A DNA stretch of 64,000 nt from a virus. Lineage: Duplodnaviria; Caudoviricetes. Below are positions 3,804-45,598 of this stretch, piece after piece. The first letter of the stretch is position 1. Each line of letters opens with the position of its first letter. Location: positions 22,932 to 86,931 of the IMG/VR virus record IMGVR_UViG_3300048861_000079; one strand, given 5' to 3'. Made by a program: the position numbers and the translations under genes. The notes under the pieces were generated by a model that was not told where the DNA came from, ran no database searches, and saw nothing but the letters and a program-made list of their open reading frames with translations.

Positions 3804-4150
3804 TGTTTCAGCCCAATCTGGTCGGCACGCTGAAGCGACTCACCGGCCGCGACGTCCATTCCCGCGAAACCTGGTCGGATCCGATCGACTGCCCGTTTGG
3901 TCCGGTCAACCTTGACGTCGGCTCGCAGAAGACGTCCGTGCGTTCTGACAGCTCCGCCTCGCGCGGCGCCGCCGATGAGATCGCGACAATGAATGCCAAG
4001 ATCCTGATCGCGCCGTTCGTTCAGGTCGCGATCGGCGACCGGTTCGAATTCGATGGCATGATCTTCAAGATCACCACCAAGCACACGCGCCGCTCCGTCA
4101 CTGGCGTCGTAGACCATTTCGAGTGCGCGATGGAGATCGTGCCGGCATGA
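3803..4150 (+). CDS. putative head closure/stopper protein
   Basis: 115 aa beta-rich (GDRFEFDGMIFKI), TGATG-coupled. Confidence 0.55.
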   Translation: MFQPNLVGTLKRLTGRDVHSRETWSDPIDCPFGPVNLDVGSQKTSVRSDSSASRGAADEIATMNAKILIAPFVQVAIGDRFEFDGMIFKITTKHTRRSVTGVVDHFECAMEIVPA

Positions 4151-4623
4151 GGGGCTCGCTGCGCATCCAGGGCATGGACAGGGTCCGGATCTCGCTTCGC
4201 AACATCGCGGAGAAGGTGCCTGATGGTGCGCGTAAGGTCATGCACAGGGCAGCCGACGACATCGTCAAGACCGCCAAGATCATGACGCCGGTCGACCTCG
4301 GCAACCTGGAGAACTCGATCAAGATCCTGAAGAGCTACGGCTACCGCGGCCGCCTGCAGATCGACATCGGCGTCGAACCCTCCGGAGGCGAGGTCAACTA
4401 CAACGGCAAGCCGATCAACGTGAACGACTATGCCGCGATCATCCATGAGAACTACGAGCAGTATAAGCCCGGCAAGCGCACACTCGCCAAGCGCGCTCAG
4501 TATCCCGGCTACTACATCGGCTCCGGCTTCATGACCCGCGCCGCCGCGCGCGAGGAGCCGCTGCTTAACAAGCAGATGATCGACACCATCGAACGCATAA
4601 TCCTGGAGGAAGACGTCAAGTGA
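4147..4623 (+). CDS. HK97 gp10-like tail completion protein
   Basis: AKIMTPVDLGNLENSI...YAAIIHE...FMTRA motifs; ATGA-coupled start. Confidence 0.7.
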   Translation: MRGSLRIQGMDRVRISLRNIAEKVPDGARKVMHRAADDIVKTAKIMTPVDLGNLENSIKILKSYGYRGRLQIDIGVEPSGGEVNYNGKPINVNDYAAIIHENYEQYKPGKRTLAKRAQYPGYYIGSGFMTRAAAREEPLLNKQMIDTIERIILEEDVK

Positions 4624-6817: not shown

Positions 6818-9800
6818 ATGAGCAATATCAGGGTTGAACTTCAGCTTGCCGACGGCTCCTTCACGAGCGGTATGCTTCGTGCTGGGCAGTCGCTCAACGA
6901 GTTCAACCAGCAGCTCATCCGCACCAATCCGCGCCTGGCTGCCCTGGCGGCAGGCTCGGGTTCCATTGTCACCTCGATCAACCGTGCCGATGGGGCTACC
7001 AAGGGCTTCCTCGGCACGCTTCGCGATGTCTCCATCGTCACCGGCCTGGTGTCGATGGGCCTCTCGACCATGTCGGGTGTCGCAAACGGCTTCGTCGGCG
7101 AGATCGTCAAGGTCAACGCCGAAATGGAACGCCTGCGCTTCATGATGCAGGCGATGAGCACGGCGAAGGATCCTTTTGCCGATGCGAACCGCTCTGTCGC
7201 GTATCTGCGCGATCAGGCCAAGAACATGCCCTTTGCGATGGGCACGATCACCAATGCATTCGTCAAGCTGAAGACGACGGGCATGGATCCGATGAACGGA
7301 TCGCTCACGGCGCTCGCTGACGGTATCTCCGCTTTCGGTGGCGACGATCAGGCTTTCAACCGCGTCACGGTCGCAATCACTCAGATGGCGGGTAAGTCCG
7401 TCATTCAGATGGAAGAACTGCGCCAGCAGCTCGGCGAGCAGATGCCGGCGGCCTTTCAGGTCATGGCGCGTTCGGCCGGTGTCTCCGTCGCAGAACTGAC
7501 CAAGGCGATCTCCACCGGCCGCGTCGAGGCAAAGCCGGCGCTGGAAGGCTTCTTCCAGGAGCTTGAGCGCTCCTATGGCGGCGAAGCCCAGCGCATGATG
7601 CAGACCTTCTCCGGCCAGGTCTCGCAGCTTGCCACGAACCTGCAGAACCTTGCGACCAACGAAGGCGGCCGCGGCTTCTTCGACCAGGTGAAGGCGCAGC
7701 TGGTCGACATCAACCAGTTCCTTTCCAGCAATGCCGCCCAGATGTTTGCGACCAGGCTCGGCCAGGGTCTTTCCCAGGCTGTCGGCTGGATCCGCACGGC
7801 GGCTGAGAATGTCTTTGAATTTCGCAACGAGATCCTGAATGTCGGCTCGGCGATCGCGGCTGCATTTGGCGGTCTGGCGATCATCCGCGGCATTGGATCT
7901 TTCGTCAGCGCAGTCGGCTCGCTGCGTGCAGCCCTTGTCGGTGTTGGCGCTCAGTTCCAGGTCGCCGGCAACGCGCAGGCCTACTACAACCTCGTCACCA
8001 ATTCGGGCGCACCGGCGCTCGTGCGACTGCGCGCTGCGATGCTGGTCACGACCGAGGCCGCGGCCGGTCTGACGATGACCCTGACGGCTGTCGCGCCCTG
8101 GGTCGCCGCGGTCGGTATCGCCGTCTACACGGCCGGCAACTATTTCGGTTGGTTCACCGACAAGGTCAAGGAGAACTACGAGACCCTCGAGCAGTATGGC
8201 GCACAGACGCGCAAGCAGGCTGCAGACACCATTGCCGCGCGCAAGGCAGAGCTCGAGGCCAATCTTGAAGTCTTCGAAGCTCAGAAGAAGCAGCAGGAAG
8301 ACCTTGCCAAGTGGGGCGTCACGACCGCTGACAGCACCGACGTCGAGGAAAACATCAAGAAGGCCAAGGCTGCCCTCGATGACCTGAACAAGAAGCAGGA
8401 AGACATTCTGAACCAGGCTGCGTCCAATGAGGACCAGTCCGAGCTCGCCAAGCTTGATCGCCGGTTGCAGACCGAAATCGGCATGATCGAGAACAACTAC
8501 CGCCAGCAGCAGGAAAAGGCGGAGGTTCACTACAACGAGCTCGCCAAGCAGGATGCTGACGCCGGCAAGGTTGCCGTCAAGACGGAGCAGGATCGCAAGG
8601 CGGCCATTCTCGCCATCCAGCAGGAACGCTCCAAGGCGATCCTCGACATCTACCAGAAGGAAGAGGATGAGCTGAAGAAGCGCCAGCAGACGGCGCTCGG
8701 CGACGAACTCACGCGGATCAACACGCTGCTTGGAAACGTGCGGGCGCGCTGGCTGCAGGAAAACGACAACCTCAAGAACCTGAAGATGCCGGCCGGCATC
8801 CAGTTCGCCAACAAGCCGATCAACGACGCTCAGAACATCAAGCAGGGTCAGACGACCCTCAAGAGCCTCACCGACGACATCGCCAAGGTCCAGGCGCAGC
8901 TTGGCGGCGCCTCGGGCGCTGCTGCCGAGATGTGGCAGAAGATCAAGAACGGCGATTACGGTCAGATCGAGGGCGCGACCGAAGAGACCAAGAAGCTCCA
9001 CGAAGAGCTGATGGCCGCGACGACGCAGAAGGAAGCGCTAGACAAGCTGATGGCCGGCCAGAAGAAGGCCGAGCAGGATCTCGCCAGCGTCAAGGAAAAG
9101 GTTCTCGCCAAGGAATTCGAACTTCGCAAGAAGATGTCCGGCGGCGACAACATGACCGACAGCGAGGAGTTCCTCCTCAAGCTGCAGGACGGCTTCTACC
9201 AGGGCCTCGGCCCGATCGACAACATCCGCGAAGCAATCAGCGGTGTGACGTCCGCGCTCGACCTGACGGGCACGACGCTGAACACGATCGGCAACGTCAC
9301 CCGCAACAACACCTTCGGTGATCAGACCGCTCAGAAGATCCAGACGGTCACCGACAAGCTGCGCGAAATGTCTGGCGTTCTTGCCGATATCTCTCGCGGC
9401 GTCTCGGGCATCGACATGTCGAACATTGGCAAGGGCCTGCCCACCTCGACCGCAGGCTTCTCCGGCGGCGCCCTGATGGGCATGGCAGGCTTCTCGGGCG
9501 TGCCGACCTCCGGCGCCAACCTGATGTCGAAGCACATGGATATCTTCGGGGATCCGCGCACGCCTGGCTGGGCTGCGCAGAACCTCACCGACGTCGGCAT
9601 CGACAACGGCATGAAGGTCCAGGTCAACAAGCTCGCCGCGGACGCCTTCAAGGGCTTCCTGAACGAGCTCCTCGGCCAGGGCTACAACATCAAGTCCCTC
9701 GGCGGCTACGCGCTGCGCGACAAGGTCTCGGGCAACGGGATCTCCGAGCATGCCTTTGGCAACGCCATCGACATCAATCCGGACCAGAACCCTTACGGCA

Positions 9801-11512
9801 AGGGCTTCAAGACCGACCTGCCGGCGAACATTCGCGAGCTGGCAGCAAAGTATGGCCTGTCCTGGGGCGGCGACTGGAAGTCCGTCAAGGACACGATGCA
9901 CTTCGAATGGCGCGGCGGCAACGCTCCGCAGGGCAGGGTGCCGGCCGCCGACTCCGCGCCTGGCGCCGGCCAGATGCCGCAGGTTCCCGAGATCCCGCAG
10001 TATGACAGCACGGCGACCCAGGAGCGACAGAACCAGCTGCTTCAGGATCGCGTGGCGATGACCGAGAAGCTGCAGGAGGAGGGCAAGAAGCTCGCCGAGC
10101 GCGAAGCCGCGGCTGATGAGGGCATGGATGAGGTCAAGCGCAAGGAAGCGCTCGATACGATCCTGAAGAAGACCCAGGAGCTCACGACCCAGACCGACAA
10201 GCTCGGCAAGACCGAGGAGCGCTACGTCAACGCCATCACGCATGGCGAGCTCGGCCGCTCCAAGGATCCGAAGGCGAAGGAATACCAGGACATCCTGGCG
10301 GCCGCGCGCGAGCAGGACAAGATCGAAGGCCAGCTTAACGACAAGGCCAAGGCTGGCACCGAAGCCGCGCGCGACCGCAAGAAGCTCGATGAGCAGCGCG
10401 CCGAGCTGGTCAAGGAAATCGCCGAGCAGGAGAAGCTTGCCAAGAACCCGGACTACAAGCCGGAAAGCTCGCAGCTCGCCAACACCCGCAAGCAGCTCGA
10501 TGACTACGTCCAGTCGATCAAGGATTCGGAAGGCGAGGCAAGCCAGGCCTACAAGGATGCTGTCGACTATCGCTCGGCCTATCTCGCACAGACCCAGCAG
10601 CGCGATCTCCTGACGCAGCGCGCAGCGATGAACAGCAACACGCGCGACCTGCAGACGAACCTGCTTTCGCAGTCGCAGATCCGTGCTGTGTCGATGCAGC
10701 GCGAACTGGATGAGCTGAACCGCCGCGAAGCGCAGGAACTCGCCGTCACCGGCCAGACCGAAGCGCAGAAGGCCCAGATCACCGAGGACTACGAGAAGGC
10801 CAAGGCTGCGATCCGCGCCAAGTATAACGCCGAAGCCTCGCCGCTGCAGAAGCAGATGACCGAATGGCGCGATGTTCAGACGGAGCTTGCCCAGGCCTCC
10901 ACGAAGTGGATGGACTCGCTTGCCGGCGGCATCACCGACCTCATCACCGGCACCGGCGACCTGCGTTCGGCCATTCAGGGGATCCTGAAGGACATCGTGA
11001 ACATGGGCGTCAAGTATATGATGGGCTCGTTGATGCAGGGCAAGCAGGGCGGTGCAGGCCGTGCCGGCGCCAAGGCATCGAAGGGTGGTCAGTCCAAGAT
11101 TGCAGCCAGCGGCAAGTCGGCCGGCCTCTATCACACCGGCGGCATCGTCGGCATGGGCACTGGCGCGTCCAAGATCGCCTCGGCCGCTGCCTGGATGAAC
11201 GCTCCGAAGTTCCACACCGGCGGCATCGTCGGCTCGAGCCTGCTTCCGAACGAAGTGCCGATCATCGCCAAGAAGGGCGAGGGCGTCTTCACCGAAGACC
11301 AGATGAGCGCGATGGGCGGCTTCAGCCAGCAGCAGAACGTCCAGATCAATGCGCCTGTCACGGTCAACGCCTCCGGCGGCACGCCCGAGCAGAACAACGA
11401 TCTCGCCCAGAAGATGAGCAAGCAGATGGAAACGACCATGCGCTCTGTCGTCGCCGATGAGCTGCGCAAGCAGACCCGTCCGGGCAACTACCTGAACCAG
11501 AGGAGCCGCTAA
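6818..11512 (+). CDS. tape measure protein with an internal peptidase M15 domain
   Basis: 1564 aa helical; tape-measure N-domain (QMAGKSVIQMEELRQQLGE); SEHAFGNAID...WGGDW..KDTMHFE; C-terminal FHTGG motifs. Confidence 0.9.
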   Translation: MSNIRVELQLADGSFTSGMLRAGQSLNEFNQQLIRTNPRLAALAAGSGSIVTSINRADGATKGFLGTLRDVSIVTGLVSMGLSTMSGVANGFVGEIVKVNAEMERLRFMMQAMSTAKDPFADANRSVAYLRDQAKNMPFAMGTITNAFVKLKTTGMDPMNGSLTALADGISAFGGDDQAFNRVTVAITQMAGKSVIQMEELRQQLGEQMPAAFQVMARSAGVSVAELTKAISTGRVEAKPALEGFFQELERSYGGEAQRMMQTFSGQVSQLATNLQNLATNEGGRGFFDQVKAQLVDINQFLSSNAAQMFATRLGQGLSQAVGWIRTAAENVFEFRNEILNVGSAIAAAFGGLAIIRGIGSFVSAVGSLRAALVGVGAQFQVAGNAQAYYNLVTNSGAPALVRLRAAMLVTTEAAAGLTMTLTAVAPWVAAVGIAVYTAGNYFGWFTDKVKENYETLEQYGAQTRKQAADTIAARKAELEANLEVFEAQKKQQEDLAKWGVTTADSTDVEENIKKAKAALDDLNKKQEDILNQAASNEDQSELAKLDRRLQTEIGMIENNYRQQQEKAEVHYNELAKQDADAGKVAVKTEQDRKAAILAIQQERSKAILDIYQKEEDELKKRQQTALGDELTRINTLLGNVRARWLQENDNLKNLKMPAGIQFANKPINDAQNIKQGQTTLKSLTDDIAKVQAQLGGASGAAAEMWQKIKNGDYGQIEGATEETKKLHEELMAATTQKEALDKLMAGQKKAEQDLASVKEKVLAKEFELRKKMSGGDNMTDSEEFLLKLQDGFYQGLGPIDNIREAISGVTSALDLTGTTLNTIGNVTRNNTFGDQTAQKIQTVTDKLREMSGVLADISRGVSGIDMSNIGKGLPTSTAGFSGGALMGMAGFSGVPTSGANLMSKHMDIFGDPRTPGWAAQNLTDVGIDNGMKVQVNKLAADAFKGFLNELLGQGYNIKSLGGYALRDKVSGNGISEHAFGNAIDINPDQNPYGKGFKTDLPANIRELAAKYGLSWGGDWKSVKDTMHFEWRGGNAPQGRVPAADSAPGAGQMPQVPEIPQYDSTATQERQNQLLQDRVAMTEKLQEEGKKLAEREAAADEGMDEVKRKEALDTILKKTQELTTQTDKLGKTEERYVNAITHGELGRSKDPKAKEYQDILAAAREQDKIEGQLNDKAKAGTEAARDRKKLDEQRAELVKEIAEQEKLAKNPDYKPESSQLANTRKQLDDYVQSIKDSEGEASQAYKDAVDYRSAYLAQTQQRDLLTQRAAMNSNTRDLQTNLLSQSQIRAVSMQRELDELNRREAQELAVTGQTEAQKAQITEDYEKAKAAIRAKYNAEASPLQKQMTEWRDVQTELAQASTKWMDSLAGGITDLITGTGDLRSAIQGILKDIVNMGVKYMMGSLMQGKQGGAGRAGAKASKGGQSKIAASGKSAGLYHTGGIVGMGTGASKIASAAAWMNAPKFHTGGIVGSSLLPNEVPIIAKKGEGVFTEDQMSAMGGFSQQQNVQINAPVTVNASGGTPEQNNDLAQKMSKQMETTMRSVVADELRKQTRPGNYLNQRSR

Positions 11513-11865
11513 TGTCCGTCCCGACTTTCGAGCCGCCGGTCGGTCCCTCTCCCGGCACCGCGCACAAGCCGACCATCAGCCTGAACGAGACCGAGTTCGG
11601 CGACGGCTATTCGCAGATCTCGCCGAAGGGGCTGAACCACATCAAGAAGTCCACCACGCTGAAGTGGGAAGTGCTGACGCTCGACCAGATGCACGAGATC
11701 ATGGATTTCTTCGAAGAGATGGGCGGCTATCTGCCCTTCTACTATCGACCGTTCGGCGAGCGCCTGGCGATCAAGTGGACCTGCAAGGACTTCTCGGCAG
11801 ATACCCAGGGCGGCATCTGGAGCGTGAGCGCGACCTTCATCCAGTCGTTCTCGAATGCAGAGTAA
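11512..11865 (+). CDS. lambda gpM-like minor tail protein
   Basis: ETEFGDGYSQ...GLN; follows the tape measure gene. Confidence 0.8.
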   Translation: MSVPTFEPPVGPSPGTAHKPTISLNETEFGDGYSQISPKGLNHIKKSTTLKWEVLTLDQMHEIMDFFEEMGGYLPFYYRPFGERLAIKWTCKDFSADTQGGIWSVSATFIQSFSNAE

Positions 11866-11881
11866 GCATTTACTTACTTTT
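11862..11881. promoter_or_regulatory. degenerate operator (upstream member of a pair)
   Basis: GTAAGCATTTACTTACTTTT. Confidence 0.55.
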
Positions 11882-11886
11882 TCCTC

Positions 11887-11915
11887 TTGCTGATAAGTAA
11901 GCACTTACTTACAAT
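11887..11915 (+). promoter_or_regulatory. sigma70-like promoter whose spacer is the operator
   Basis: TTGCTG-N17-TACAAT. Confidence 0.55.
11893..11912. promoter_or_regulatory. 20-bp palindromic operator
   Basis: ATAAGTAAGCACTTACTTAC. Confidence 0.8.
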
Positions 11916-11939
11916 GCGGACTCCAACCAAGGGGTCTCG

Positions 11940-12650
11940 ATGTCCAATTTGCAAGCTGAAGGCCAGAGCCTCTCTCCTTCAGGAATCGTTTCGCTGTTCA
12001 CCCTCGACGCGACGTCGATGGGTGGGCCGCTGATGCATTTCGTCCAGGGCACGGAGCTTGACCAGGCGGTCAGCTTCGCAGGGGTCGTCTACAACGCAAT
12101 CGACGTCCAGTTCGACGGGCTCGAGACCACGGGCACCGGCGCGCTGCCGACGCCGCAGATCCGCATCTCCAATACTGACGGCCTGGCCCAGGCGCTTATT
12201 TCGACCTACGGCGAGCTGCTTGGCTGCACGCTCTTTCGCGTGCGCACCTACACGCGCTTCCTCGACGGCCAGCCGGACGCGGATCCGGAAGCCTTCTATG
12301 GCCCGGACATCTTCCGCTTTGAGCGCAAGACCTCCGAGAACGACGTCTACATCGAGTGGGAGCTCTCCGCTTCGATCGACCAGGAAGGCAAGCAGCTTCC
12401 CGGCCGCACCGTCATCCGCAACACCTGCCTGTGGCGCTACCGCTACTACAACGGCTCCACCGGCCACTACGACTATTCCAAGGCGCAGTGCCCTTACACG
12501 GGCGCGCAGGCCTACGACATCAACGACCTTCCTGTCTCTGACCCGGCCAAGGACGTGCCCTCGCGCCGCCTGTCGTGCTGCCGCACGCGCTTTGGCCGCG
12601 CCAATCCGCTGCCCTTCGGCGGCTTTCCCGGCGTCCAAAGGATTTCCTGA
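11940..12650 (+). CDS. lambda gpL-like minor tail protein
   Basis: RVRTYTRFLD, WELSASID...LPGR, and C-terminal Cys cluster (C..C..C..RFG..LPFGGFPG). Confidence 0.85.
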   Translation: MSNLQAEGQSLSPSGIVSLFTLDATSMGGPLMHFVQGTELDQAVSFAGVVYNAIDVQFDGLETTGTGALPTPQIRISNTDGLAQALISTYGELLGCTLFRVRTYTRFLDGQPDADPEAFYGPDIFRFERKTSENDVYIEWELSASIDQEGKQLPGRTVIRNTCLWRYRYYNGSTGHYDYSKAQCPYTGAQAYDINDLPVSDPAKDVPSRRLSCCRTRFGRANPLPFGGFPGVQRIS

Positions 12651-13447
12651 TGACCTATCCGTTCTTTGAGGCGTTCGAAGACGCCAAGGCACACGCGCGC
12701 AGGCAGTTCCCGGAAGAGAGTTGCGGCGTCATCGTCAAGGGCAAGTATATCGCCTGCGACAACGTCGCCGACGATCCGGCCAACCACATCGATCATGCGG
12801 ACTGCGACTGCCGGCTTTGCGCCTTCGCTATCGGTTCGAAGGAATACGACAAGCACGCGATCGCCGGCATCGACATGGTGATCCATAGCCATCCGAACGG
12901 CCCGTTCTATCCCTCGCTCGCCGACATGGAATACCAGGCGCGCACCGGCCGCCCGTGGGCAATCATCGTCCTGGACGAAGAGCGCATCTCCACCAAGCCC
13001 ACCATCTGGGGCGCTGAGACCGAGATCCCGGCGATCCTCGGCCGCGAATTCATGCACGGCGTGACCGACTGCTACCAGCTCATCAAGGACGTCTACGCGC
13101 TCGGCCGCGAGAAGCTCGAGGCGCAGGGCATCGTCGGGTGGCCGTTTGAGCCGATCACGCTGATGCACAAGCCGCGCGAGGATGCCTGGTGGGAAGGCGA
13201 TGCCGATCTCTACGAGGAGAACTTCGCGGCTGCCGGCTTTGTCGAGGTCACCGACGCACCGAAGCCCGGCGACGTCTTCCTGATGAAGATCCGCTCTTCG
13301 AAGAACAATCACGGCGGCGTCCTTCTCGACAACGCACTCATCCTTCATCACCTGCCGCAGCGCCTCTCCAGGCGTGAGCCGGCCGGCATCTGGGGCCGCC
13401 AGGCGACGAAGTGGCTTCGCTACGTAGGCGAGGGCACCCATGCGTAA
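12650..13447 (+). CDS. lambda gpK-like tail assembly protein (JAB + NlpC/P60)
   Basis: ESCG, HSHP..PSLAD, HGVTDCY, NHGG; TGATG-coupled start. Confidence 0.85.
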   Translation: MTYPFFEAFEDAKAHARRQFPEESCGVIVKGKYIACDNVADDPANHIDHADCDCRLCAFAIGSKEYDKHAIAGIDMVIHSHPNGPFYPSLADMEYQARTGRPWAIIVLDEERISTKPTIWGAETEIPAILGREFMHGVTDCYQLIKDVYALGREKLEAQGIVGWPFEPITLMHKPREDAWWEGDADLYEENFAAAGFVEVTDAPKPGDVFLMKIRSSKNNHGGVLLDNALILHHLPQRLSRREPAGIWGRQATKWLRYVGEGTHA

Positions 13448-14099
13448 GATCTTTCTCCACGGCTCTCTGGGCGACCGCTACGGCCACGAATTCGAACTGG
13501 AAGTGTCGACGGCCGGCGAGGCCTTTCGCGCGCTGGCTGCCAACTTCTCGGGCTTCATGAAGCAGGTCCGCGAGGGCGCCTGGCATATCGTGCGCGCTCA
13601 TAAGGGCGACATCGACGGCGGCATTTCCCTCGATGAGACCCAGATCAAGGGCTTCCATCTAGGCCGTAAGGGCGACCTTCACATCCTGCCTTACGTCGCC
13701 GGCTCCAAGCGCGGCGGCCTGCTTAAGGTCGTTCTCGGCGTCGTCCTTGTCGGAGCAGCCTTTGCTTTGACTGGCGGCGCGCTTGCATCGCCGATCCTCG
13801 GCGCCGGTGGCCTGCTCGGCGGCGTAACGGGCAGCCATGTTGCGCTCATTGGTGCGGCTGTCGCACTGGCCGGCGTCTCTTCGATGCTGACGCCCGAGCA
13901 GAAGGCCTCCGACGAAGACGGCTCGAGCTCCTTCACCATGTCCGGCCCCGGCAACACCAGCAACCAGGGCGGCCCTGTGCCTCTCGCTTACGGCGAGATC
14001 ATCACCGGCGGCACGCTGATCTCCGGCGGCGTCGACATCGAGCAGATCGCGGTTACCGGCGACGGTGGCGGGTCGGTTGGATCGGGAGGCAAGAAGTGA
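13440..14099 (+). CDS. lambda gpI-like tail assembly protein
   Basis: LHGSLGDRYG...QGGPVPLAYGE...GGTLISGG. Confidence 0.85.
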   Translation: MRKIFLHGSLGDRYGHEFELEVSTAGEAFRALAANFSGFMKQVREGAWHIVRAHKGDIDGGISLDETQIKGFHLGRKGDLHILPYVAGSKRGGLLKVVLGVVLVGAAFALTGGALASPILGAGGLLGGVTGSHVALIGAAVALAGVSSMLTPEQKASDEDGSSSFTMSGPGNTSNQGGPVPLAYGEIITGGTLISGGVDIEQIAVTGDGGGSVGSGGKK

Positions 14100-17000
14100 T
14101 CACGATCGAACGGCACACCCTGACGTCGTCTACGACGATGGGCCTTCCTCCTGTCCGCGGACGGCGCGTCTTTGGTCGCGGTGGCGGTGGCGGCAAGAGC
14201 GGAGGCAGCGCCTCCAACGACAAGAACACCATGCGCTCGCGCGCGGACTTCCGCCTGATCGACGCCATCTCCGAAGGCGAGATCGAGGGCCTGGTCAATG
14301 GCGCGCAGTCGATCTTCTTCGACCAGACCCCGCTGCAGAACGCCGACGGCACCTTCAATTTCAAGGACGTCGCCTGGTCGGCGCACCGCGGCCTGGCTGA
14401 CGAAGGCTACTTCAACGGCCATGACGCCGTCGAGACACCTGTCGAGGTCGAGACCCAGGTCAAGAACGCTCTTGGCCCGACCACCCGCACCATCGTTGAC
14501 GAGAACGTCGATGCAGTCCGCGTCATCATGCGCATTCCGGCGCTGGTCAAGCAGGACAGCAAGGGCGGCCTGAAGAAGACTTCGGTCTCCTACACGATCT
14601 CCTACCGCGCCAACAACGGCTCCTGGGTCGACGCGATCCAGAACGACATCAGCAATCAGAAGGCGCTTTCGCCTTTCCAGATCGCTCATGTCGTCAATCT
14701 CCCGGCCGGCGGCTCGCCCTGGGATATCCGCGTCACCCGCAACACCGCCGACAGTGACGACGACAAGCTCCAGAACGACACCTATTGGGAAGGTTACGTC
14801 GAGCTCGTCTACGGCAAGTTCATCTACCCGCACACCGCGGGCGTGGCGCTCTCCGGCAATGCCGAGGAGATGGGCAGCTCCGTTCCGCCGCGCAGCTACC
14901 ACATCAAGGGCATGAAGATCGCGGTTCCGTCGAACTACGATCCGATCGCGCGCACCTATTCCGGGATCTGGAACGGATCCTTCAAGATCGCCTGGACCAA
15001 CAATCCGGCCTGGATCTTTTACGACCTCATCACCAACGACCGCTACGGCCTGGGCGAATTCGTCAGCCCCGAGATCGTTGACAAGTGGTCGCTCTACACC
15101 ATCGCGCAGTATTGCGATCAGCAGGTGAAGTCCGGCTTCAAGAACGGCGACACGGGTGCGGATCTCTACGAGCCGCGCTTTACCTTCAATGGCGTCATCA
15201 ACACCAAGGATGAAGCCTACAACGTCCTGCAGAACATCACCCAGGCCTGGCGCGGCATGGCCTATTGGGCGATGGGCCAGGTCTTTGCGACCGCCGACAT
15301 GCCGGCAGACCCGGTCAAGCTGGTCTCGCCCGCCAACGTCGTCGGTGGCGACTTCGACTATGCCGGCACTGCGATCAAGGCCCGGCACTCCGTCGTCATG
15401 GTCAAGTGGAACAATCCGGACGACTTCTATCGTGCCGACACCGAAGTCGTCATCGATAGCGACCTTCTGCACAAGTATGGATGGCGCGACAAGACGGTGC
15501 AGCTGAACGGCTGCACGTCGCGCGGCCTGGCGCATCGCTACGGCAAGTGGATCATCGACACCGAACAGCACGAGACCGACACGCTGACCTACTCGGCGTC
15601 CTGGGACCATGCCGAAGTGCGCCCTGGTGAAATCGTCGCCGTCTCGCATCCGCGCAAGGCGCAGATCCGCGCGTCCGGCCGTGTCGTCAAGCATGACGAA
15701 CTGACCATCACCCTCGATGATGATTTCGACTGGAACGAAGGCCAGACCTATCAGCTGATGCTGACCATGCCGTCGGGCCAGCTCGAGACGAAGCCGATCC
15801 TCGCCTTCCTCGACAATCATACGGTTCGCGTTTCCTCTGCCTATTCGGCCGAGGCGCTCGCTGACGCCATGTGGACGATCACGGGCTCCGACATCACGCC
15901 GCGGCTCTTCCGCGTCATCAATGTCGAGGAGTCGGAGCCGAACATCTTCAAGGTCACGGCGCTGTTCCATGACCCGCAGAAGTATGCCCGCGTCGAGCAG
16001 GATATCTATTTCGACCCGCTTCCCTACGAGCGCCCGCCGACCGGCTCCGTGCCGCCGACGAACCTGCTGGTAAAGGAAAGCGGCTACGTCTCCAACAATG
16101 TCCAGACGCTCCAGCTGACCGTCTCCTGGACGCCGCCGACCAATGTCCTTGCCCGCGGCTTCCTGGTCTCGGTCGACACGCCGGATGACGGCCACATCGT
16201 TCTCGGCTCGACCGATAACGCCTACATGGACATGTATAACACCACGTCGGGCGAATACACGTTCTACGTCCAGACGATCTCCATGACGGGTATCGCCTCG
16301 GCGCCTGCGCAGATCACCTTTGATGCCGCAGGTCCGGAAGGCTTCATGCGGCCGACGGTCTCCGACCTGGTGCTGGTCCAGAACCCCGGTTCGACGCAGT
16401 TCACCGGCAGGGATCTGATCGTCACCTGGAAGAACAACTTCGCGCTCTCGGCTGACCCGTCCTCGCCCTATTACGAGCCGAGCGACGTCCAGAGCCCGCA
16501 CTACGCCTTCAACACCGTCAAGATCTACAACGGCAACACGGGCGAGCTGCTGCGCCAGTCGATCGTCGGCACGAACAATTTCGACTACGATTTCCTGACC
16601 AACCAGGCCGACAACGCCGCTAAGGGTCATCCGGCCTGCCGCGTGCTGCGCGTGGCTGTCACTGTCACGGATATCTACGGCCGCGAGTCGGCTGAAGCCA
16701 CGGTGGTCTTCTCCAATCCGCCTATTCCCGAGATGGCGATCCAGACCTCGGTCAACGGCCATACGATCTATATCTCCTACGACTTGCCCGCCCAACCTGA
16801 CTTCCAGGGCGTCGATCTCTGGATCGAGGAGGCATCGGGCTACAATCCGCTGACGACGGCGCCTTTTTACGAGGGCGGCAACAACCAGATCACGTTCTCG
16901 GGCAAGGACGCGACCGACTATTTCATCCGGGTCGGCGGCTTCGACGTCTTCGGCAAGGATGGAATGCTGATCGCGCCTGAGGTTCAGGTCCACACCCTGC

Positions 17001-34426: not shown

Positions 34427-34649
34427 ACTGACCGATGAGGCCGTGGTGAGGGTCAAGAAGGCCCTCATCGACGCGCAGTCCGACAATCCCCGAGTGCGTC
34501 AGGCCGCCATGCTCGAGGTCAAGAAGCTGACCGTTCTCTACGGATCTGACGCGCTTTCCGGAGTGGAAGACGTTCTTGCCGAGGAAGCTTACGAGCGCGG
34601 ACAAGAAGAAGCCTGGGCGATGGGCGGCCCTGGTGTCGTCTGGGACTAG
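34413..34649 (+). CDS. hypothetical protein (78 aa)
   Basis: Coupled to the upstream gene; its stop overlaps the repC stop in CTAG. Confidence 0.55.
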   Translation: MSRAELTDEAVVRVKKALIDAQSDNPRVRQAAMLEVKKLTVLYGSDALSGVEDVLAEEAYERGQEEAWAMGGPGVVWD

Positions 34650-35743
34650 CGCCGCATTCGTTGGATCTCCCCGTCGAGCGTCACACGGCCCTCCTTGATT
34701 AAGCGGCACATGACGCGATAGTATCCGCCGAAGTTCTTGATACTTTCAGATCCACTTGGCGTCCCGGCCTGCATCTGAAGGACAAGAACGAGGGTCGCTG
34801 CCGCTGGTAGCGGCCCAATTTCACGTCTGGCCTCCTCCCAGGCCGACGACGAAACCCCGAGCTGACCGCGCCACCGCGCTGCCACGCTGATCAGCTCCAT
34901 ATCCGAGCGAATTTCACCCAGGAATTCCATCGCATCAGGGCAGGCGGCAATCAGGTCGCGCAGATTGGCCCTCGGCTTCGCCTCCTCAACATTCTCATTG
35001 CCGTTGTTACAAGGATTCTCAGGGGCATATTTGTTGTTGTCTTTGTGACGGTCGTTATTGCCGCCAGAGGCGGAATAATATCTTGCCTCAGCCTCGATCC
35101 TGAGCTGCTCCCAGGCGTTCAGCGGGCCGTCCGTCGATCCCTTTGACGACCGGCGCGGCGTGACTCTCACGAGCTCGACAGCGCGGGCTACGAGATCGCG
35201 GGTGTCTACTTCCGGAAACTGCTCTGCAAGCGTCCTGAGCGCTTCCTGGGCCGATCTGCGCGCGATCGTCATTGCATCGTGGGCAGCCAGGCGCAACCGC
35301 TCCTGTTCTTTCTGCTCGGTGACGATATCCGTAAACTCAGACAGCCGGTTGAGGAGAGGGGAGAGATCGAAGCCATAAGCCTCGACGACCACGCCCGCGG
35401 CATTCTGGCGGGAATACCTTTTGCCATTCGGACTGTCGTGGGCCGCAATGACGCCGAGCTCGAGGAGCCGCGCCAGTGCAAACCGGATCGTCCGCTCCGA
35501 TATTTGGGTGCGCTCCTCGAGGAAACGGTTGGACGGCCAGACCATCATTCGGCCGGCGATCAGCTTGCCGCCATAGACGCCGACCAGGTGCTCCAGCACA
35601 TAGCGGCAGGCGGTGGGAAGGCGTAACGCTCGCATGGCGAGCCTGGACGCCTCGAACAGGTCATTCTTGTCGCTGGTATACGGCTCAGCCGCCCGTGGAA
35701 TCACAGGCTTGAGCGCGCGCCAGCCGGACGACTGCGCAGACAT
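34646..35743 (-). CDS. repC: RepC plasmid replication initiator (repABC family)
   Basis: VWPSN...R..LA.L.ELG.I...DSPNGKRY...AYGFDLSPL; C-domain ACPD...LGVS.SAW.EA...GGY; probable start ATG 35743. Confidence 0.9.
   Translation of the reverse strand: MSAQSSGWRALKPVIPRAAEPYTSDKNDLFEASRLAMRALRLPTACRYVLEHLVGVYGGKLIAGRMMVWPSNRFLEERTQISERTIRFALARLLELGVIAAHDSPNGKRYSRQNAAGVVVEAYGFDLSPLLNRLSEFTDIVTEQKEQERLRLAAHDAMTIARRSAQEALRTLAEQFPEVDTRDLVARAVELVRVTPRRSSKGSTDGPLNAWEQLRIEAEARYYSASGGNNDRHKDNNKYAPENPCNNGNENVEEAKPRANLRDLIAACPDAMEFLGEIRSDMELISVAARWRGQLGVSSSAWEEARREIGPLPAAATLVLVLQMQAGTPSGSESIKNFGGYYRVMCRLIKEGRVTLDGEIQRMRR
34990..35085. other. AT-rich patch inside repC, candidate oriV
   Basis: Local AT-rich tract with a GANTC site; repABC origins are known to lie within repC. 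Confidence 0.45.
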
Positions 35744-35795
35744 GGTATCCCTCTTGTCCGAGGGCAAAGCTTCGCCATTCACCTCAAGAGAAGTG

Positions 35796-35824
35796 TTGAC
35801 AAATCAGCGCTGATTCGGGATAAC
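35796..35824 (+). promoter_or_regulatory. ctRNA promoter
   Basis: TTGACA-N17-GATAAC; the spacer contains palindrome AATCAGCGCTGATT and a GANTC site. Confidence 0.75.
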
Positions 35825-35829
35825 CATCT

Positions 35830-35899
35830 TGCAACGAGGCGATCCGAAGTCGCTGAGATTTACAAAGGCTCCTGATTTGGCGATCAGGGGCCTTTTGCT
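35830..35899 (+). ncRNA. counter-transcribed RNA of the repC replicon
   Basis: Antisense to the repC leader; ends in AAAGGCTCCTGAT-TTGGCG-ATCAGGGGCCTTTT terminator. Confidence 0.75.
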
Positions 35900-35908
35900 T
35901 TGCCGCGT

Positions 35909-36106
35909 TTAGTTTCCTTCAAATACTGCGACCGCGTGCGCGATCAGATCCGAACGGTTCTTGTATTTCCCGGTTGAAACCAGGGCATCGAGCTTTTCTT
36001 GCAATATCCGGTCGAGCCAAACCGTCACCTGGCTCTCACCGGCGGCCTCGCGCTTCTTCCGATAGGTAGCTGCGCGACGTGCATTTCCGTTTTCTTCAAC
36101 ATTCAT
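35909..36106 (-). CDS. ribbon-helix-helix DNA-binding protein
   Basis: QVTVWLD...KLDALV..GKYKNRSDLI..AV. Confidence 0.7.
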   Translation of the reverse strand: MNVEENGNARRAATYRKKREAAGESQVTVWLDRILQEKLDALVSTGKYKNRSDLIAHAVAVFEGN

Positions 36107-36224
36107 GGGCTAGAGACTCACTCCGAACCAAATCACGTTACCAGTGATGGCACGATTCGGCTTACGGTTAAACCCTCACTCAAATCTTAACGCTAAAGTT
36201 ACACTGGTTAACAAATTCCCGCAG

Positions 36225-36252
36225 AAGTCGCATAAGCTCGATTATGGAACAA
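36225..36252. other. dif-like XerCD recombination site
   Basis: AAGTCGCATAA-GCTCGA-TTATGGAACAA (11-6-11; CATAA-N6-TTATG core). Confidence 0.75.
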
Positions 36253-36366
36253 TCGGAGTCTAATGTAGCCATTACGGATGATAGCGTGTAGCCCTTTAGG
36301 AGCACGCGTTTCAATCTGAGGCACTCCTGAAAATAATAATATATACAAACTGTTGCGTTCGCAAAA

Positions 36367-36386
36367 ATAAGTATGTGTTGACTTAT
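36367..36386. promoter_or_regulatory. degenerate operator upstream of the HTH gene
   Basis: ATAAGTATGTGTTGACTTAT, overlapping TTGACT. Confidence 0.55.
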
Positions 36387-36418
36387 TTTTTAAGCGGGGT
36401 TACGAGTCGCCTCGCTCA

Positions 36419-36492: not shown

Positions 36493-36954
36493 ATGCATAT
36501 GGAAACAAACGAAGACAGAAGGTTCACAGTGGCACCTGCAGACACCAAATCCAAGAAACTTGGTCGCAAGAATGTGACTGAACTGTCGCGGCTGGCTATC
36601 CTGCTGGAGAAGCACACTGCAAGCAGCGGGAAAACACAGCGTCAGATAGCCGACGCAGTCGGTTTCAATAACCAGAACATGATCACCATGATCAAACAAG
36701 GTGATGCGAAGTTGCCGCTCGATCGCGTTCCGGCTATGGCCCACGTGCTCGGCGTTGATCCGCTGATGCTGTTCAACATGGCAATTGAGCAGTTCTACAC
36801 ACCAGACGCGGTTAAAGCTCTTCAGGACATTATTCCACCAGCACTGTCGGTCGCCGAGCGGGCGCTGATAGACGTGGTGCGTGAAGCCGGCAAGAAGGGC
36901 AAGCAACTGACTGCCGAACGTATCGACAAAATCCGCGAGCTCCTCGAGGGCTAG
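36493..36954 (+). CDS. XRE-type HTH regulator, candidate master repressor
   Basis: KTQRQIADAVGFNNQNMITMIKQG..KLPLDRV..MAHVLGVDP. Confidence 0.8.
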   Translation: MHMETNEDRRFTVAPADTKSKKLGRKNVTELSRLAILLEKHTASSGKTQRQIADAVGFNNQNMITMIKQGDAKLPLDRVPAMAHVLGVDPLMLFNMAIEQFYTPDAVKALQDIIPPALSVAERALIDVVREAGKKGKQLTAERIDKIRELLEG

Positions 36955-42232: not shown

Positions 42233-45200
42233 ATGCACTCGATCCTCGCAGCGCGCACCGATTTCTCGGTCGGCGAAAGCATTCTCACGACCGAATTCCT
42301 GATCAAGAACGCTGTCGAGGCAGGCGCCAAGGCTGTCGCGATGACCGACACCATGAGCGTGACCGGCATGATCGACTTCACGAACCGCGCCAAGAAGGCC
42401 GAGTTGAAGCCGGTCATCGGATGCCGGCTGTGCCTGACCGACGCACCGGAATGGCGTCCTGACACGGGTCAGAAGAAGAAGGACATGCCGCGCTACTATT
42501 ACCTGACGGTCTACGCGCTGACCGAGGCAGGCATGAAGGCGATCTTCCGGCTGCTGACGCTCGCCAATTCCGAAAAGCGCTTCTACTATGAGGCTAAGCT
42601 TGGCTTTGATGACCTTTACGATGAGCTCCGTGCGATTGGACCTGACCAGCTTGCAGTGGTCCTTGGTGACGCGCATTCGGTTCTCGAGCATCCGGACGCC
42701 GAGAACATCGTCGTTACGATCGGCGGCTTCTGCCGTCACGCATATGCGCCGCTGGTCCCGGTCGACACGCCCTATTACGGGCGTCTCAACGAGCTGGCGC
42801 TGAATGCAATCGGCACCGGCTATGTGCAGCCGATCGTCGTTCGTCCCGCCTTCTACGGCCAGGGCGAGGCAGACGCGCAGGAGATCATGACGGCCGTTAC
42901 CGACAACCACAAGATCACCGATGGCTGGTTTAAGTCGCGGCACAATCGCGACATGCATGTTATGGGCACGCCCGAACTGGTTGGGGAAATGAAGAAGGCG
43001 ATCGCGCACCTCGGCAAGCGCGGTCTCGATGTCAGCACGGTCACGGCGAAGTTCAAGGAAGGCTTGCTCAACACCGGCGTCCTGGTCGACGCCGTCGAAT
43101 ACGAATGGAAGAAGGCCGACGTCTCCTTGCCGATCATGTCCGACAACGAGTTCGGCGCGGTCATCGATGAATGCAAGAAGGGCTGGAAGATCCGGTTCGA
43201 GCAGGTGATCTTCGGCCATCGGCCTTCGCAGGAAGACCTGATCAACATCTACAAGCCGCGTCTGGCCTACGAGCTCGAGACCCTCAAGCGCTTGAACTTC
43301 TCCGGCTACTTCCTGCTCGTGCAGGACGTCGTCCAGTTCGCCAAGTCGTCGGGTATCATGGTCGGACCTGGTCGTGGATCCGTGGGCGGATCCCTTGTCG
43401 CTTATCTGATGGGGATTACCGACTGCGATCCGATCCGCTTCGGACTGCTTTTCGAGCGCTTCATCAACCCCGAACGTATCGACTTGCCCGACGCCGACCT
43501 GGATTTCATGTCGACGCGCCGGCACGAGGTTTTCGAATACCTGACCAAGAAGTATGGCGAAGCCCGCACGGCTGGCGTCAACAACTTCGGCACGCTCGCG
43601 GCCGCTTCCGCCATGCGCGACGTCGGTCGCGTGACAGGGATCCCGGAGAAGGACTATTCCGTCTCCAAGTTCGTTCCCAAGCTGCACGGCGCCAACGTGC
43701 CGCTGCCGGAATGCCGCGTCCAGGTGCCTGAGATCGACACCTTTGCGAACAACTATCCGGAGTTCTGGCCGATTATGACCAGGCTCGAGGGCACGATCCG
43801 CAACTTCGGCCAGCATGCCGGCGGCTTCATCGTCGGTGGCGTGGATCTGACTGATCGCGCCGTGGTCGAGCGCCGCAAGGAAGGCAACGTCGTCTGCTGG
43901 GACAAGCGCATCGTTGAAGATCAGGGCTTGGTCAAGATGGATATTCTGGGTCTCGTGACCCTCGACCTCATCAAGCTTACCCTGGACTACGTGAAGGAAC
44001 GGACGGGCAAGCGCGTCGATATCATGAGCATTCCCCTCGATGATCCCGAGGTGCTCGAGAACTTCGCCAAGGCCAACACGACGGCGATCTTCCAGTTCGA
44101 GTCCGGCGGTATGCGCCGGCTGCTGAAGGATCTCGGCGCCGATGGCACCATCACCTTTGACGACATCACGGCTGCCACCGCTCTCTACCGCCCCGGCCCG
44201 ATGGAGTCCGGGATGATGGATTCGTTCGCCAAGCGTAAGCAGGGCTACGAGCCGGTCGAATATGATCATCCGCTGATGGAAGACGTGCTGAAGGAAACCT
44301 TCGGCGTCATCGTCTACCAGGAGCAGGTCATGAAGATCTCCCAGGTGATCGCCGGCTACTCGGGTGCTGCAGCTGACAAGCTCCGCAAGATCATGGGCAA
44401 GAAGCTGCCTGAGGAGATGAAGAAGGAGCGCCAGAAGTTCGTGGACGGCTGTGTCGAGACGATCGGCTGCGCGGAAGAATGGGCAGGGCATCTCTTCGAC
44501 AAGATCGAAGGCTTCGCTGGCTACGGCTTCAACAAGAGCCACTCGGTCGAATACACCCTCCTCTCCTACCAGTCGATGTATCTCAAGGTCCACTACGGCG
44601 TCGAGTTCTACGCCGCGGCGCTGACCGTGCTGAAGGAAGAAAAGCTGCCTGGCATCATCCGCGACGCAAAGCAGATGGGTATCGACGTCGGCTTCCCGGA
44701 CATCAACATCTCGACCGACAAGTTTGAGATCGCGACCGACGTGCGCCTGGTCATGCCGTTTCAGCGCATCAAGGGTATTTCCGAGCGCGCAACGACCGCG
44801 ATCCTCGCAGCGCGCCAGGCTGGCCCGTTCAAGGACAAGGCAGACTTCATCGGCCGCGTCGAGCGGCGGGTCTGCAACATCAAGGTTCAGGGTGCGCTCG
44901 ATGCTGTCGGCGCGTTCGCACGCATCGAACCCGGTCAGTTGCCGGCCAACGATCCGAGCCGCATCAAGGACCAGATTGAGCTCCTGCCTGGTCTGGTCGC
45001 CGCCCACGTTCCGGTTGATCGCGAGATGTATACCGACAAGGAGACCAAGGAGGCGATCGGCGAGCTGGTGGCGACCTACCGCGCCAATCATGGGCCTGGA
45101 TCTTCGGCGGTCGACGGAATGCCGATCAAGCCTTCGTTCGGCCGCTCGGCTGACTTTATGTTGATCCAGGACGCGCCAAACGGCGAAGATGATGGCAACG

Positions 45201-45598
45201 GCATGATGGGTCATGGCAAGGCGATCATTCCGATCATCGAAGCGATGGACCAGGTCGGGCTCGCACGTGAGAACGCCTATTGGACGGCGCTCATTAAGCG
45301 GCCGAAGCGAGGCAAGCAGGTCTCGCCGGAAGAGATCGCGACCTACTGGCCCTATCTCGAACAGGAGATCGATATTCTCAAGCCGTCGATCATCGTCCTG
45401 ATGGGCTCGCAGACGGTTCGCCACTTCATGCCCGACTTCAAGGGCAAGGCGTCCGACATGGCCGGCAAGGTGGTCTACTCCAAGACCTACGACGCCAATT
45501 TTGTGATCGGCTTCGCACCCGGTGAAATCTATCACGATCCGGACAAGCAGATGAACATGAACGAAGTCCTCGGCTCGGTCGCGGATCTGCTCGCATGA
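42233..45598 (+). CDS. dnaE: DNA polymerase III alpha (family C) with a C-terminal UDG-like domain
   Basis: GRGSVGGSL, FERFINPER..PDADLDF, KMDILGL, YGFNKSH; C-terminal ~160 aa UDG family-4-like. Confidence 0.95.
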   Translation: MHSILAARTDFSVGESILTTEFLIKNAVEAGAKAVAMTDTMSVTGMIDFTNRAKKAELKPVIGCRLCLTDAPEWRPDTGQKKKDMPRYYYLTVYALTEAGMKAIFRLLTLANSEKRFYYEAKLGFDDLYDELRAIGPDQLAVVLGDAHSVLEHPDAENIVVTIGGFCRHAYAPLVPVDTPYYGRLNELALNAIGTGYVQPIVVRPAFYGQGEADAQEIMTAVTDNHKITDGWFKSRHNRDMHVMGTPELVGEMKKAIAHLGKRGLDVSTVTAKFKEGLLNTGVLVDAVEYEWKKADVSLPIMSDNEFGAVIDECKKGWKIRFEQVIFGHRPSQEDLINIYKPRLAYELETLKRLNFSGYFLLVQDVVQFAKSSGIMVGPGRGSVGGSLVAYLMGITDCDPIRFGLLFERFINPERIDLPDADLDFMSTRRHEVFEYLTKKYGEARTAGVNNFGTLAAASAMRDVGRVTGIPEKDYSVSKFVPKLHGANVPLPECRVQVPEIDTFANNYPEFWPIMTRLEGTIRNFGQHAGGFIVGGVDLTDRAVVERRKEGNVVCWDKRIVEDQGLVKMDILGLVTLDLIKLTLDYVKERTGKRVDIMSIPLDDPEVLENFAKANTTAIFQFESGGMRRLLKDLGADGTITFDDITAATALYRPGPMESGMMDSFAKRKQGYEPVEYDHPLMEDVLKETFGVIVYQEQVMKISQVIAGYSGAAADKLRKIMGKKLPEEMKKERQKFVDGCVETIGCAEEWAGHLFDKIEGFAGYGFNKSHSVEYTLLSYQSMYLKVHYGVEFYAAALTVLKEEKLPGIIRDAKQMGIDVGFPDINISTDKFEIATDVRLVMPFQRIKGISERATTAILAARQAGPFKDKADFIGRVERRVCNIKVQGALDAVGAFARIEPGQLPANDPSRIKDQIELLPGLVAAHVPVDREMYTDKETKEAIGELVATYRANHGPGSSAVDGMPIKPSFGRSADFMLIQDAPNGEDDGNGMMGHGKAIIPIIEAMDQVGLARENAYWTALIKRPKRGKQVSPEEIATYWPYLEQEIDILKPSIIVLMGSQTVRHFMPDFKGKASDMAGKVVYSKTYDANFVIGFAPGEIYHDPDKQMNMNEVLGSVADLLA

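Follow-up and report, generated by a model that had tools for sequence, protein, structure and literature searches.

The stretch of DNA examined in this study (hereafter the window; 64,000 nucleotides) comprises bases 22932–86931 of an 86,931-bp record of the IMG/VR database, IMGVR_UViG_3300048861_000079 (Duplodnaviria; Caudoviricetes). At positions 34646–36252 it harbors a compact unit in which a repC replication initiator gene is preceded by a spacer encoding a putative antisense, or countertranscribed, RNA (ctRNA), by a small gene whose product resembles ribbon-helix-helix (RHH) proteins, and by a dif-type Xer site. Positions are those of the window, unless the complete record is indicated by the word contig. 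The unit is composed of the following elements:

34646–35743, minus strand: repC, the replication initiator gene, encoding 365 aa from the ATG at 35743, in an open frame that reaches a GTG at 35782
35000–35095, no strand assigned: candidate origin of vegetative replication (oriV) within repC, codons ~217–248, the lowest-GC segment
35744–35908, minus strand: structured repC leader RNA, the predicted antisense target, in which a hairpin sequesters the Shine-Dalgarno (SD) sequence
35796–35824, plus strand: predicted ctRNA promoter (TTGACA, 17 nt, GATAAC), with a GANTC site adjoining the -10 element
35831–35901, plus strand: ctRNA of ~71 nt with predicted ends, consisting of a 5' hairpin, a 13/14-bp terminator hairpin and a U tract
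35909–36106, minus strand: RHH-like gene of 65 aa, candidate transcriptional regulator of the RHH-repC unit
36128–36172, minus strand: conserved block preceding the RHH gene, containing an inverted repeat (ATCAC-N7-GTGAT) and a GANTC site at 36154
36225–36252, no strand assigned: dif-type Xer site, made up of an 11-bp arm, a 6-bp centre and an 11-bp arm

The window very probably belongs to a soil siphovirus of the rhizobial phage-plasmid group typified by RHEph10 and pLM21S1, in which the unit at 34646–36252 represents the ‘repC-family’ replicon of the plasmid state. An earlier sequence-only reading of the same DNA had named the repC gene, an RHH gene in the place of repAB, a ctRNA between the two, a dif-like site upstream and a location amid a lytic replisome without an integrase, and had called the element a Rhizobiales phage-plasmid. 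The analyses described below bear out each of these points, the last of them through the existence of plaque-forming phages and of six circular plasmid records with the same layout.

Genomic setting of the replicon

The contig encodes a set of virion proteins that includes the large terminase, portal, scaffold, major head protein, tape measure, a J-like tail protein and tail fibres. Its replication genes specify a DnaB-like helicase, a primase, an ATP-dependent ligase, a DnaE-type polymerase, a gp32-like protein, a 5'-3' exonuclease, RecA, an SbcCD-like pair and a ribonucleotide reductase. The replicon is embedded among these in the gene order ligase, repC, RHH, helix-turn-helix (HTH), CobT/CobS-like, sigma, DnaE. 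No tyrosine or serine recombinase (Pfam Phage_integrase, Resolvase) was detected in the whole contig, and an integrase and a resolvase were likewise not found in five complete relatives; the reading of the element as an integrated prophage was rejected because the contig lacks such a recombinase. With virion genes, RepC and a ParA but no integrase, the contig, which is 74% complete, displays the gene content of a phage-plasmid.

repC and a candidate internal origin

The open frame at 34646–35782 on the minus strand matches the Pfam families RP-C (4e-37; 128.1 bits, cut-off 24.4) and RP-C_C (4e-14; 53.3 bits, cut-off 32.6), and its product also passes the NCBIfam equivalog model RepABC_RepC (NF040974), with 190.1 bits against a cut-off of 150. 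The true start of the gene is probably the ATG at 35743, since it is preceded by a GAGGGA Shine-Dalgarno sequence and since homology to every relative begins at this codon.

The GC content of repC falls to a minimum of 0.44 at 34980–35059, compared to ~0.64 in the flanks, and a minimum at the equivalent relative position (0.59–0.67 of the gene) is present in all but one of 27 RepC homologues. The DNA of this segment is near-identical among the repC genes of Rhizobium/Sinorhizobium phages, plasmids and megaplasmids. Furthermore, where residues are identical among 16 RepC genes of the clade described below, third-position identity amounts to 0.5–0.6 along the gene, yet reaches 0.95–0.97 at codons ~217–248. 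This near-total loss of synonymous variation at 35000–35095 reflects a constraint on the DNA and not on the protein. It has previously been demonstrated for p42d that the essential A+T-rich origin region comprises repC nt 450–850, and that silent mutations at repC nt 658–822 abolish replication (PMC3155836). The segment identified here, which is by its sequence the A+T-rich part of repC, lies at repC nt ~650–745 and thereby corresponds in position to the p42d origin, and it is likely, on the basis of these comparisons, that oriV is located inside repC at 35000–35095.

A covarying antisense RNA and a structured leader

When the RHH-repC spacers of 15 loci are aligned, the ctRNA promoter shows an invariant -35 core. 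The RNA itself has a predicted folding energy of -29.5 kcal/mol. RNAalifold, applied to a MAFFT alignment, recovered the terminator helix only, as the 5' and SD hairpins are shifted by insertions and deletions, and the homologues were therefore also folded singly. In the 14-bp terminator helix, 94.8% of the cells are paired and seven of the 14 pairs exhibit compensatory changes among the 15 homologues. The covariation score of this helix is 0.441, compared to 0.255 for shuffled alignments, none of 500 shuffles reached 0.441, and the slid controls collapsed. When folded individually, all 15 homologues yielded a two-hairpin RNA of 71–103 nt, with stem sequences that differ from one homologue to the next. 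A generic sigma-70/terminator scanner called neither the promoter nor the terminator of the ctRNA.

The opposing repC leader is predicted to be highly structured, with a fold (178 nt) of -69.7 kcal/mol versus -49.0 +/- 4.1 kcal/mol for shuffled sequences (z -5.0). In most homologues the SD sequence is paired with an upstream C-rich segment, the sequence of which varies between homologues. The position, strand and terminator helix of the spacer RNA fit those of a ctRNA, and the element would be expected to work like one, although it is not a scored member of the Rfam family RF00489.

The RHH-like gene and its upstream block

In 21 related loci, a homologue of the 65-aa gene immediately precedes repC, and this linkage holds across RepC divergence down to 37% identity as well as in megaplasmid cassettes that are devoid of phage genes. 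A profile built from 16 members was compared with the PDB, and the top five matches were all RHH proteins (ParD antitoxins, NikR), with E values of 0.013–0.29. At E <= 0.01, three of the 16 homologues match RHH_8 and two match RHH_1, while homologues have been labelled RHH or CopG by the Prokaryotic Genome Annotation Pipeline (PGAP) and by GenBank annotators. Taken from these sequence comparisons, an RHH fold is likely. The possibility that the gene is part of a toxin-antitoxin pair was considered and rejected, no toxin gene being found to follow it.

The block at 36128–36172 is conserved across the phage, plasmid and megaplasmid copies of the unit. It is a candidate promoter of the RHH gene and may possibly contain an operator.

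The dif-type site

A single copy of the dif-type pattern was found in the window, where 0.01 would be expected. It is also present once in each of 17 phage and plasmid relatives, always upstream of the RHH gene and in unchanged orientation, and these relatives include Methylobacterium plasmids whose RepC is less than 40% identical. Each arm is identical at 10 of 11 positions to the dif predicted for chromosome I of A. radiobacter K84, and the sites predicted for R. etli, S. meliloti and S. medicae also have closely similar arms (Kono 2011 supplement). Three similar sites, on three contigs, were found in a genome of Rhizobium beringeri. The 11-6-11 architecture and the arms are thus shared with the dif sites of Rhizobiaceae chromosomes and secondary replicons, but the centre is not: chromosomal sites have one common central hexamer, whereas phage centres are different and vary from phage to phage. 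The location also differs, as the phage site lies ~1.2 kb from the origin candidate and chromosomal dif at the terminus. The plasmid Xer sites cer and psi have an 11-6-11 architecture to which that of the phage site can be likened. The differing and variable central 6 bp are more in keeping with a private site for dimer resolution than with one for integration, and the match to dif suggests that the site is recombined by XerCD in the resolution of dimers.

GANTC sites and partition functions

The segment 34646–36492 contains eight GANTC sites, compared to a mean of 2.3 (standard deviation 1.5) per 1.85 kb, a count within the top 1% and the highest of all sliding segments of equal size in the window. 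Among them are the sites at 35014 in the origin candidate, at 35812 next to the -10 element of the ctRNA promoter, at 36154 in the block upstream of the RHH gene, and at 36256 beside the dif-type site. In repABC replicons, GANTC sites mark the origin as well as the sense and antisense promoters, where they have been linked to CcrM/GcrA control, and a like placement at the promoter of repE has been described in Agrobacterium repABC loci (PMC11514494).

The sequence-only reading had stated that parAB is absent, which is true of the window, but the search for par genes that it had proposed for the remainder of the genome returned the following gene:

Contig 10177–10833, minus strand: ParA-type ATPase of 218 aa, ~12 kb before the window, with an 89-aa open reading frame (ORF) behind it

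This ParA is conserved in all ten related Rhizobium phage records, at 51–64% identity. It is part of a minus-strand block at contig 9170–13792, before the window, that consists of a 527-aa helicase gene, two unknown ORFs, the ParA gene, the 89-aa ORF and a 220-aa ORF. The 89-aa ORF, for which no family match was obtained, is a candidate for the centromere-binding partner of ParA. Also before the window, at contig 13867–15260, two tandem ParB_N-domain proteins are encoded on the plus strand in an operon that runs to the terminase. They were rejected as partition partners of ParA, given their position in a plus-strand pre-terminase operon far from it, and are more likely to be ParB-like proteins of a nuclease or DNA-modification type.

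Related phages and plasmids

The RepC of the window is 57–63% identical to those of ten Rhizobium phage records and 61% identical to that of pLM21S1. The relatives include phages RHEph10, N1_10/N1_15/N2_6, Y2_11/Y2_17_1, X66, B1VFA and V1VFA-S, in which the local gene order is the same, and DNA similarity to them is patchy, at 73–79%. RepC, DnaE, the sigma factor and a MoxR-type ATPase are furthermore encoded on six circular, non-mobilizable plasmid records of 116–119 kb, i.e., Sinorhizobium pLM21S1, Rhizobium beringeri pRlX6, those of Shinella zoogloeoides and Pararhizobium qamdonense, and those of two Methylobacterium strains. The same portal, at 62–78% identity, is encoded by pLM21S1, pRlX6 and the records of Shinella zoogloeoides and Pararhizobium qamdonense.

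A RepC phylogeny, another check that had been proposed, places the window in a phage/plasmid clade with full support (100/100), of which it forms the earliest branch as sister to the 17 other members (95/91). Within the tree, the RepCs of the Methylobacterium phage-plasmids group with the RepC of megaplasmid pMRAD01. This Methylobacterium radiotolerans megaplasmid, whose RepC is their closest relative, exhibits the unusual gene order small ORF, repC, repA, repB, with a sigma-70 family gene upstream.

Replication-arm synteny and the position of RepC within the clade associate the window with the RHEph10/pLM21S1 group, whose members have in common the RHH-ctRNA-repC unit, the dif-type site, the HTH gene, ParA, portal and DnaE, and no integrase. 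The window differs from this group in that its RepC is only 57–63% identical and in that the contig is incomplete. The phage-plasmid reading is supported by this comparison of sequences with the relatives, and not from the contig on its own.

With 52% identity, the portal further resembles that of Acinetobacter baumannii plasmids of ~107 kb. It has matches in 961 plasmid records, most of which are enterobacterial, from the genera Klebsiella, Escherichia, Acinetobacter, Yersinia and Salmonella. On account of these matches, the virion backbone is assigned to the very large SSU5/pHCM2/pMT1/AB assemblage of phage-plasmids.

Replicon cassettes in rhizobial megaplasmids

The RHH-ctRNA-repC unit was also encountered as an extra replicon in conjugative plasmids of 257–318 kb from the Rhizobium leguminosarum complex. 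The cassettes are located as follows:

Locus L011, 5628–7116: cassette of pRlX1
Locus L012, 5645–7146: cassette of pRL9b2
Locus L025, 3628–5095: cassette of pSM51_Rh08

These cassettes have neither the dif-type site nor the HTH gene nor any phage gene, and are instead surrounded by metabolic genes, including those for 1-aminocyclopropane-1-carboxylate (ACC) deaminase, a ribosomally synthesized and post-translationally modified peptide (RiPP) and quorum sensing. In some of the cassette-bearing megaplasmids, the RHH gene is present in two copies and RepC is matched three times. Queried with the RHH protein, tblastn identified only 14 plasmid records, none of them from S. meliloti, and a RepC search of genome contigs returned a single locus, which is a megaplasmid cassette. 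In the RepC tree, the megaplasmid copies branch from well within the phage/plasmid clade (100/97 support), which suggests replicon transfer between phage-plasmids and symbiotic-type plasmids, and thus an exchange of replicons with megaplasmids in one direction or the other.

Comparison with described replicons and phage-plasmids

The kind of element described here, and the group to which it belongs, have been reported before. pLM21S1 and RHEph10 were named as archetypes of plasmid-like prophages with a RepC replicon (Dziewit 2015, PMC4447125), pLM21S1 has been termed a known phage-plasmid and RHEph10 was first grouped with the AB community (Pfeifer 2021, PMC7969092), and parA, parB and repC were reported in B1VFA and V1VFA-S in a study that takes up the same view (Gunathilake 2025, PMC12509600). 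The window is therefore a new, early-branching member of this group and not a new kind of element. The SSU5/pHCM2/pMT1/Acinetobacter AB-group elements have a portal that is related to that of the window, but are without RepC according to the literature; the alphaproteobacterial branch, in contrast, carries an initiator type that is native to its hosts.

The arrangement of the replicon does not amount to a repABC operon, as the gene upstream of repC is the 65-aa RHH-like gene and the only ParA-type gene is that at contig 10177–10833, ~25 kb away. RepC, the internal A+T-rich origin, the spacer ctRNA (RepE) and the GANTC sites are alike in repABC replicons such as p42d of R. etli and the pTi and chromosome 2 of A. 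tumefaciens. In the window, however, repA and repB are not adjacent, the RHH gene occupies their place with ParA ~25 kb away, and the ctRNA measures ~71 nt with two hairpins, compared to 55–59 nt in repABC. The solitary repC with an antisense RNA gene upstream instead corresponds to the ‘repC family’ (pRmeGR4a type; repC2 of pSmeLPU88b), in which repC is located outside a repA/repB operon and is controlled by an antisense RNA encoded just upstream, an arrangement matched here.

The suggestion in the sequence-only reading that this is an undescribed minimal replicon stands only in part. A repC with antisense RNA and no repAB operon has already been described as the ‘repC family’, for which repC plus 500 bp of upstream DNA was shown to replicate (PMC10194956). 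The window unit differs from that family in being the only replicon found and in carrying an RHH gene and a dif-type site, and the addition of these two to a repC replicon looks to be undescribed in the published accounts consulted. Nor were the signature of an internal origin, the private centre of the dif-type site, the GANTC pattern, the linkage of RHH to repC and the megaplasmid cassettes found in those accounts.

A further parallel exists in pMV158, where a small RHH repressor gene (copG), a spacer encoding a countertranscript (RNAII) and the gene for the initiator RepB form one transcription unit. The likeness to pMV158 is an analogy of circuit design only, given that its initiator is unrelated (a rolling-circle RepB as opposed to the theta-type RepC) and that host range and sequences also differ.

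Neighboring features

Two features flank the unit on the side of the dif-type site:

36363–36390, no strand assigned: perfect 10-bp inverted repeat with an 8-nt spacer, which overlaps a TTGAC 5' of the HTH gene and has a core that is conserved in relatives
36493–36954, plus strand: XRE-family HTH regulator (Pfam HTH_3, 7.5e-5), divergent from the RHH-repC unit

The HTH gene, which is kept in all Rhizobiaceae phage and plasmid loci but is lacking from the megaplasmid cassettes, is a candidate prophage repressor gene, and the inverted repeat is likely to represent the operator of this candidate repressor. As a separate observation, the DnaE-type polymerase (42233–45598) has a C-terminal match to the uracil-DNA glycosylase superfamily (Pfam UDG) at residues 972–1072 (4e-8).

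Proposed mode of action

While the anatomy and conservation of the unit were observed directly, the activities outlined in this section are those that we infer from them. RepC would initiate theta replication at an origin within its own coding sequence, at ~35000–35095. A constitutive antisense RNA of ~71 nt, transcribed from the RHH-repC spacer, would pair with the repC leader and limit RepC synthesis in proportion to copy number; RepE of repABC plasmids is known to act by premature termination and by a translational block (PMC11514494; PMC10194956). The RHH protein, whose gene is strictly linked to repC, would probably repress its own promoter and thereby set transcription into repC. Such autorepression would replace the RepA/RepB autorepression of repABC operons and, together with the antisense RNA, would provide dual control similar to that exerted by CopG and RNAII of pMV158. 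Dimers of the plasmid would be resolved by host XerCD at the dif-type site, in keeping with its match to dif, while the separate ParA encoded outside the window may partition the copies. The GANTC sites at the origin candidate and at both promoters may couple the unit to the CcrM/GcrA cell cycle, as in repABC. In lytic growth, the phage-encoded DnaB, primase and DnaE would take over, and the element would thus replicate in two modes, through RepC in the plasmid state and through the phage replisome in the lytic state.

More tentatively, and in a reading judged less likely than not, RHH-ctRNA-repC may be regarded as a distinct and self-contained subtype of RepC replicon, with an internal origin, dual control and, in phage-plasmids, a private Xer site. 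It would serve as the sole replicon of a phage-plasmid lineage and would have been donated to rhizobial megaplasmids as a secondary replicon. A bolder version of this proposal would have the RepC origin start lytic replication as well, and would make the RHH/ctRNA circuit part of the lysis-lysogeny decision.

Weighing of the evidence and alternative readings

Several observations weigh against the interpretation of the unit as a plasmid-state replicon of the ‘repC-family’ type. The IMG/VR record is a linear siphovirus fragment, 74% complete according to CheckV, with no terminal overlap between the contig ends. The isolated relatives are plaque formers (PMC12509600) and attempts to induce pLM21S1 failed (PMC4447125), so that the group consists of plaque-forming phages and circular plasmid records, with the dual state seen in no single member. 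Described repC-family modules are reported to accompany a repABC replicon in all cases and to be unstable alone (PMC10194956). In pRlX6 (NZ_CP140813.1), repC is annotated as two coding sequences and the tblastn match is split at ~codon 268 (locus 3031–4177), reflecting a frameshift, or else an error of assembly, in the apparently sole replicon of this plasmid. The individual elements are also affected. The 65-aa protein scores 20.0 bits against Pfam RHH_8, with a threshold of 25.4, and an AlphaFold2 monomer model (8-sequence alignment; predicted local distance difference test (pLDDT) 74) is all-helical with the strand absent, and a Foldseek search of this model against the PDB returned no match; the monomer model is considered uninformative because the RHH strand forms only in the dimer. 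The Rfam model RF00489 (ctRNA_p42d) scores 21.2 bits at 35862–35903 on the plus strand (E 0.2 in a 2.2-kb search), with a gathering threshold of 50, and a scan of Rfam at gathering thresholds did not find the ctRNA. At E <= 1, the same model detects neither the relatives nor a classical Microvirga repABC and is thus judged to be narrow; given the sub-threshold score and the missed relatives, the ctRNA assignment relies on covariation.

Some of these facts would be accommodated if RepC were mainly, or also, an origin-binding initiator of lytic growth, with the phages being essentially virulent and the plasmid records representing rare carrier states or defective derivatives. In support of this, repC lies between ligase and DnaE within the block of replication genes, no other phage-encoded initiator was found, and the plaque-forming habit of the relatives (PMC12509600) as well as the failure to induce pLM21S1 (PMC4447125) are in agreement. 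However, a copy-limiting antisense RNA, a ParA, a site for dimer resolution and coupling through GANTC belong to low-copy maintenance and not to runaway replication, and six circular plasmid records, independent of one another and spread over five genera, can hardly be called accidents. We therefore consider this explanation quite improbable, although lytic and plasmid roles of RepC are not mutually exclusive. Barely credible, in our estimation, is a model in which the dif-type site serves as an attachment site for XerCD-mediated integration at the host dif, as in integrative mobile elements exploiting Xer (IMEX) such as the CTX phage. Such a model would account for the absence of an integrase and for the closeness of both arms to Rhizobiaceae dif, but the relatives exist as free circular molecules as large as a complete phage, the central 6 bp are unlike the conserved chromosomal centre and variable between phages, and the site always adjoins the replicon. 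Moreover, no integrated copy with phage genes was found, and the megaplasmid RHH-repC cassettes are without the site.

The function proposed for the RHH protein can be questioned in a similar manner. It might instead belong to the lysis-lysogeny switch, as an Arc/Mnt- or Cro-like counterpart of the XRE repressor, or act as an antitoxin or as the centromere-binding partner of ParA. Its gene is indeed divergent from the conserved HTH gene of the XRE type, with 386 bp of palindrome-containing control DNA between the two, while the best PDB matches of the RHH profile include ParD antitoxins. The first of these roles is weakened because the RHH gene accompanies repC and the ctRNA into megaplasmids that possess neither the HTH gene nor any phage gene. 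An antitoxin role is disfavored by the absence of a toxin gene downstream, and a partnership with ParA by the ~25 kb that separate the two genes and by the small ORF that ParA has downstream of its own. These roles are accordingly viewed as unlikely, and a regulator of repC transcription remains the preferred function of the RHH protein within a plasmid-state replicon.

Biological significance

The window represents an early-branching addition to the only described group of RepC-driven tailed phage-plasmids. It provides a compact and testable replicon map of less than 1.7 kb, in which a candidate origin in repC, a putative antisense RNA, an RHH-like regulator, a host-type Xer site and GANTC sites are combined, and the cassette, if autonomous, may possibly be of use as a small vector replicon for Rhizobiaceae. 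Through phage-plasmids, genes can pass between phages and plasmids, and in rhizobia the plasmids carry symbiosis and fitness genes.

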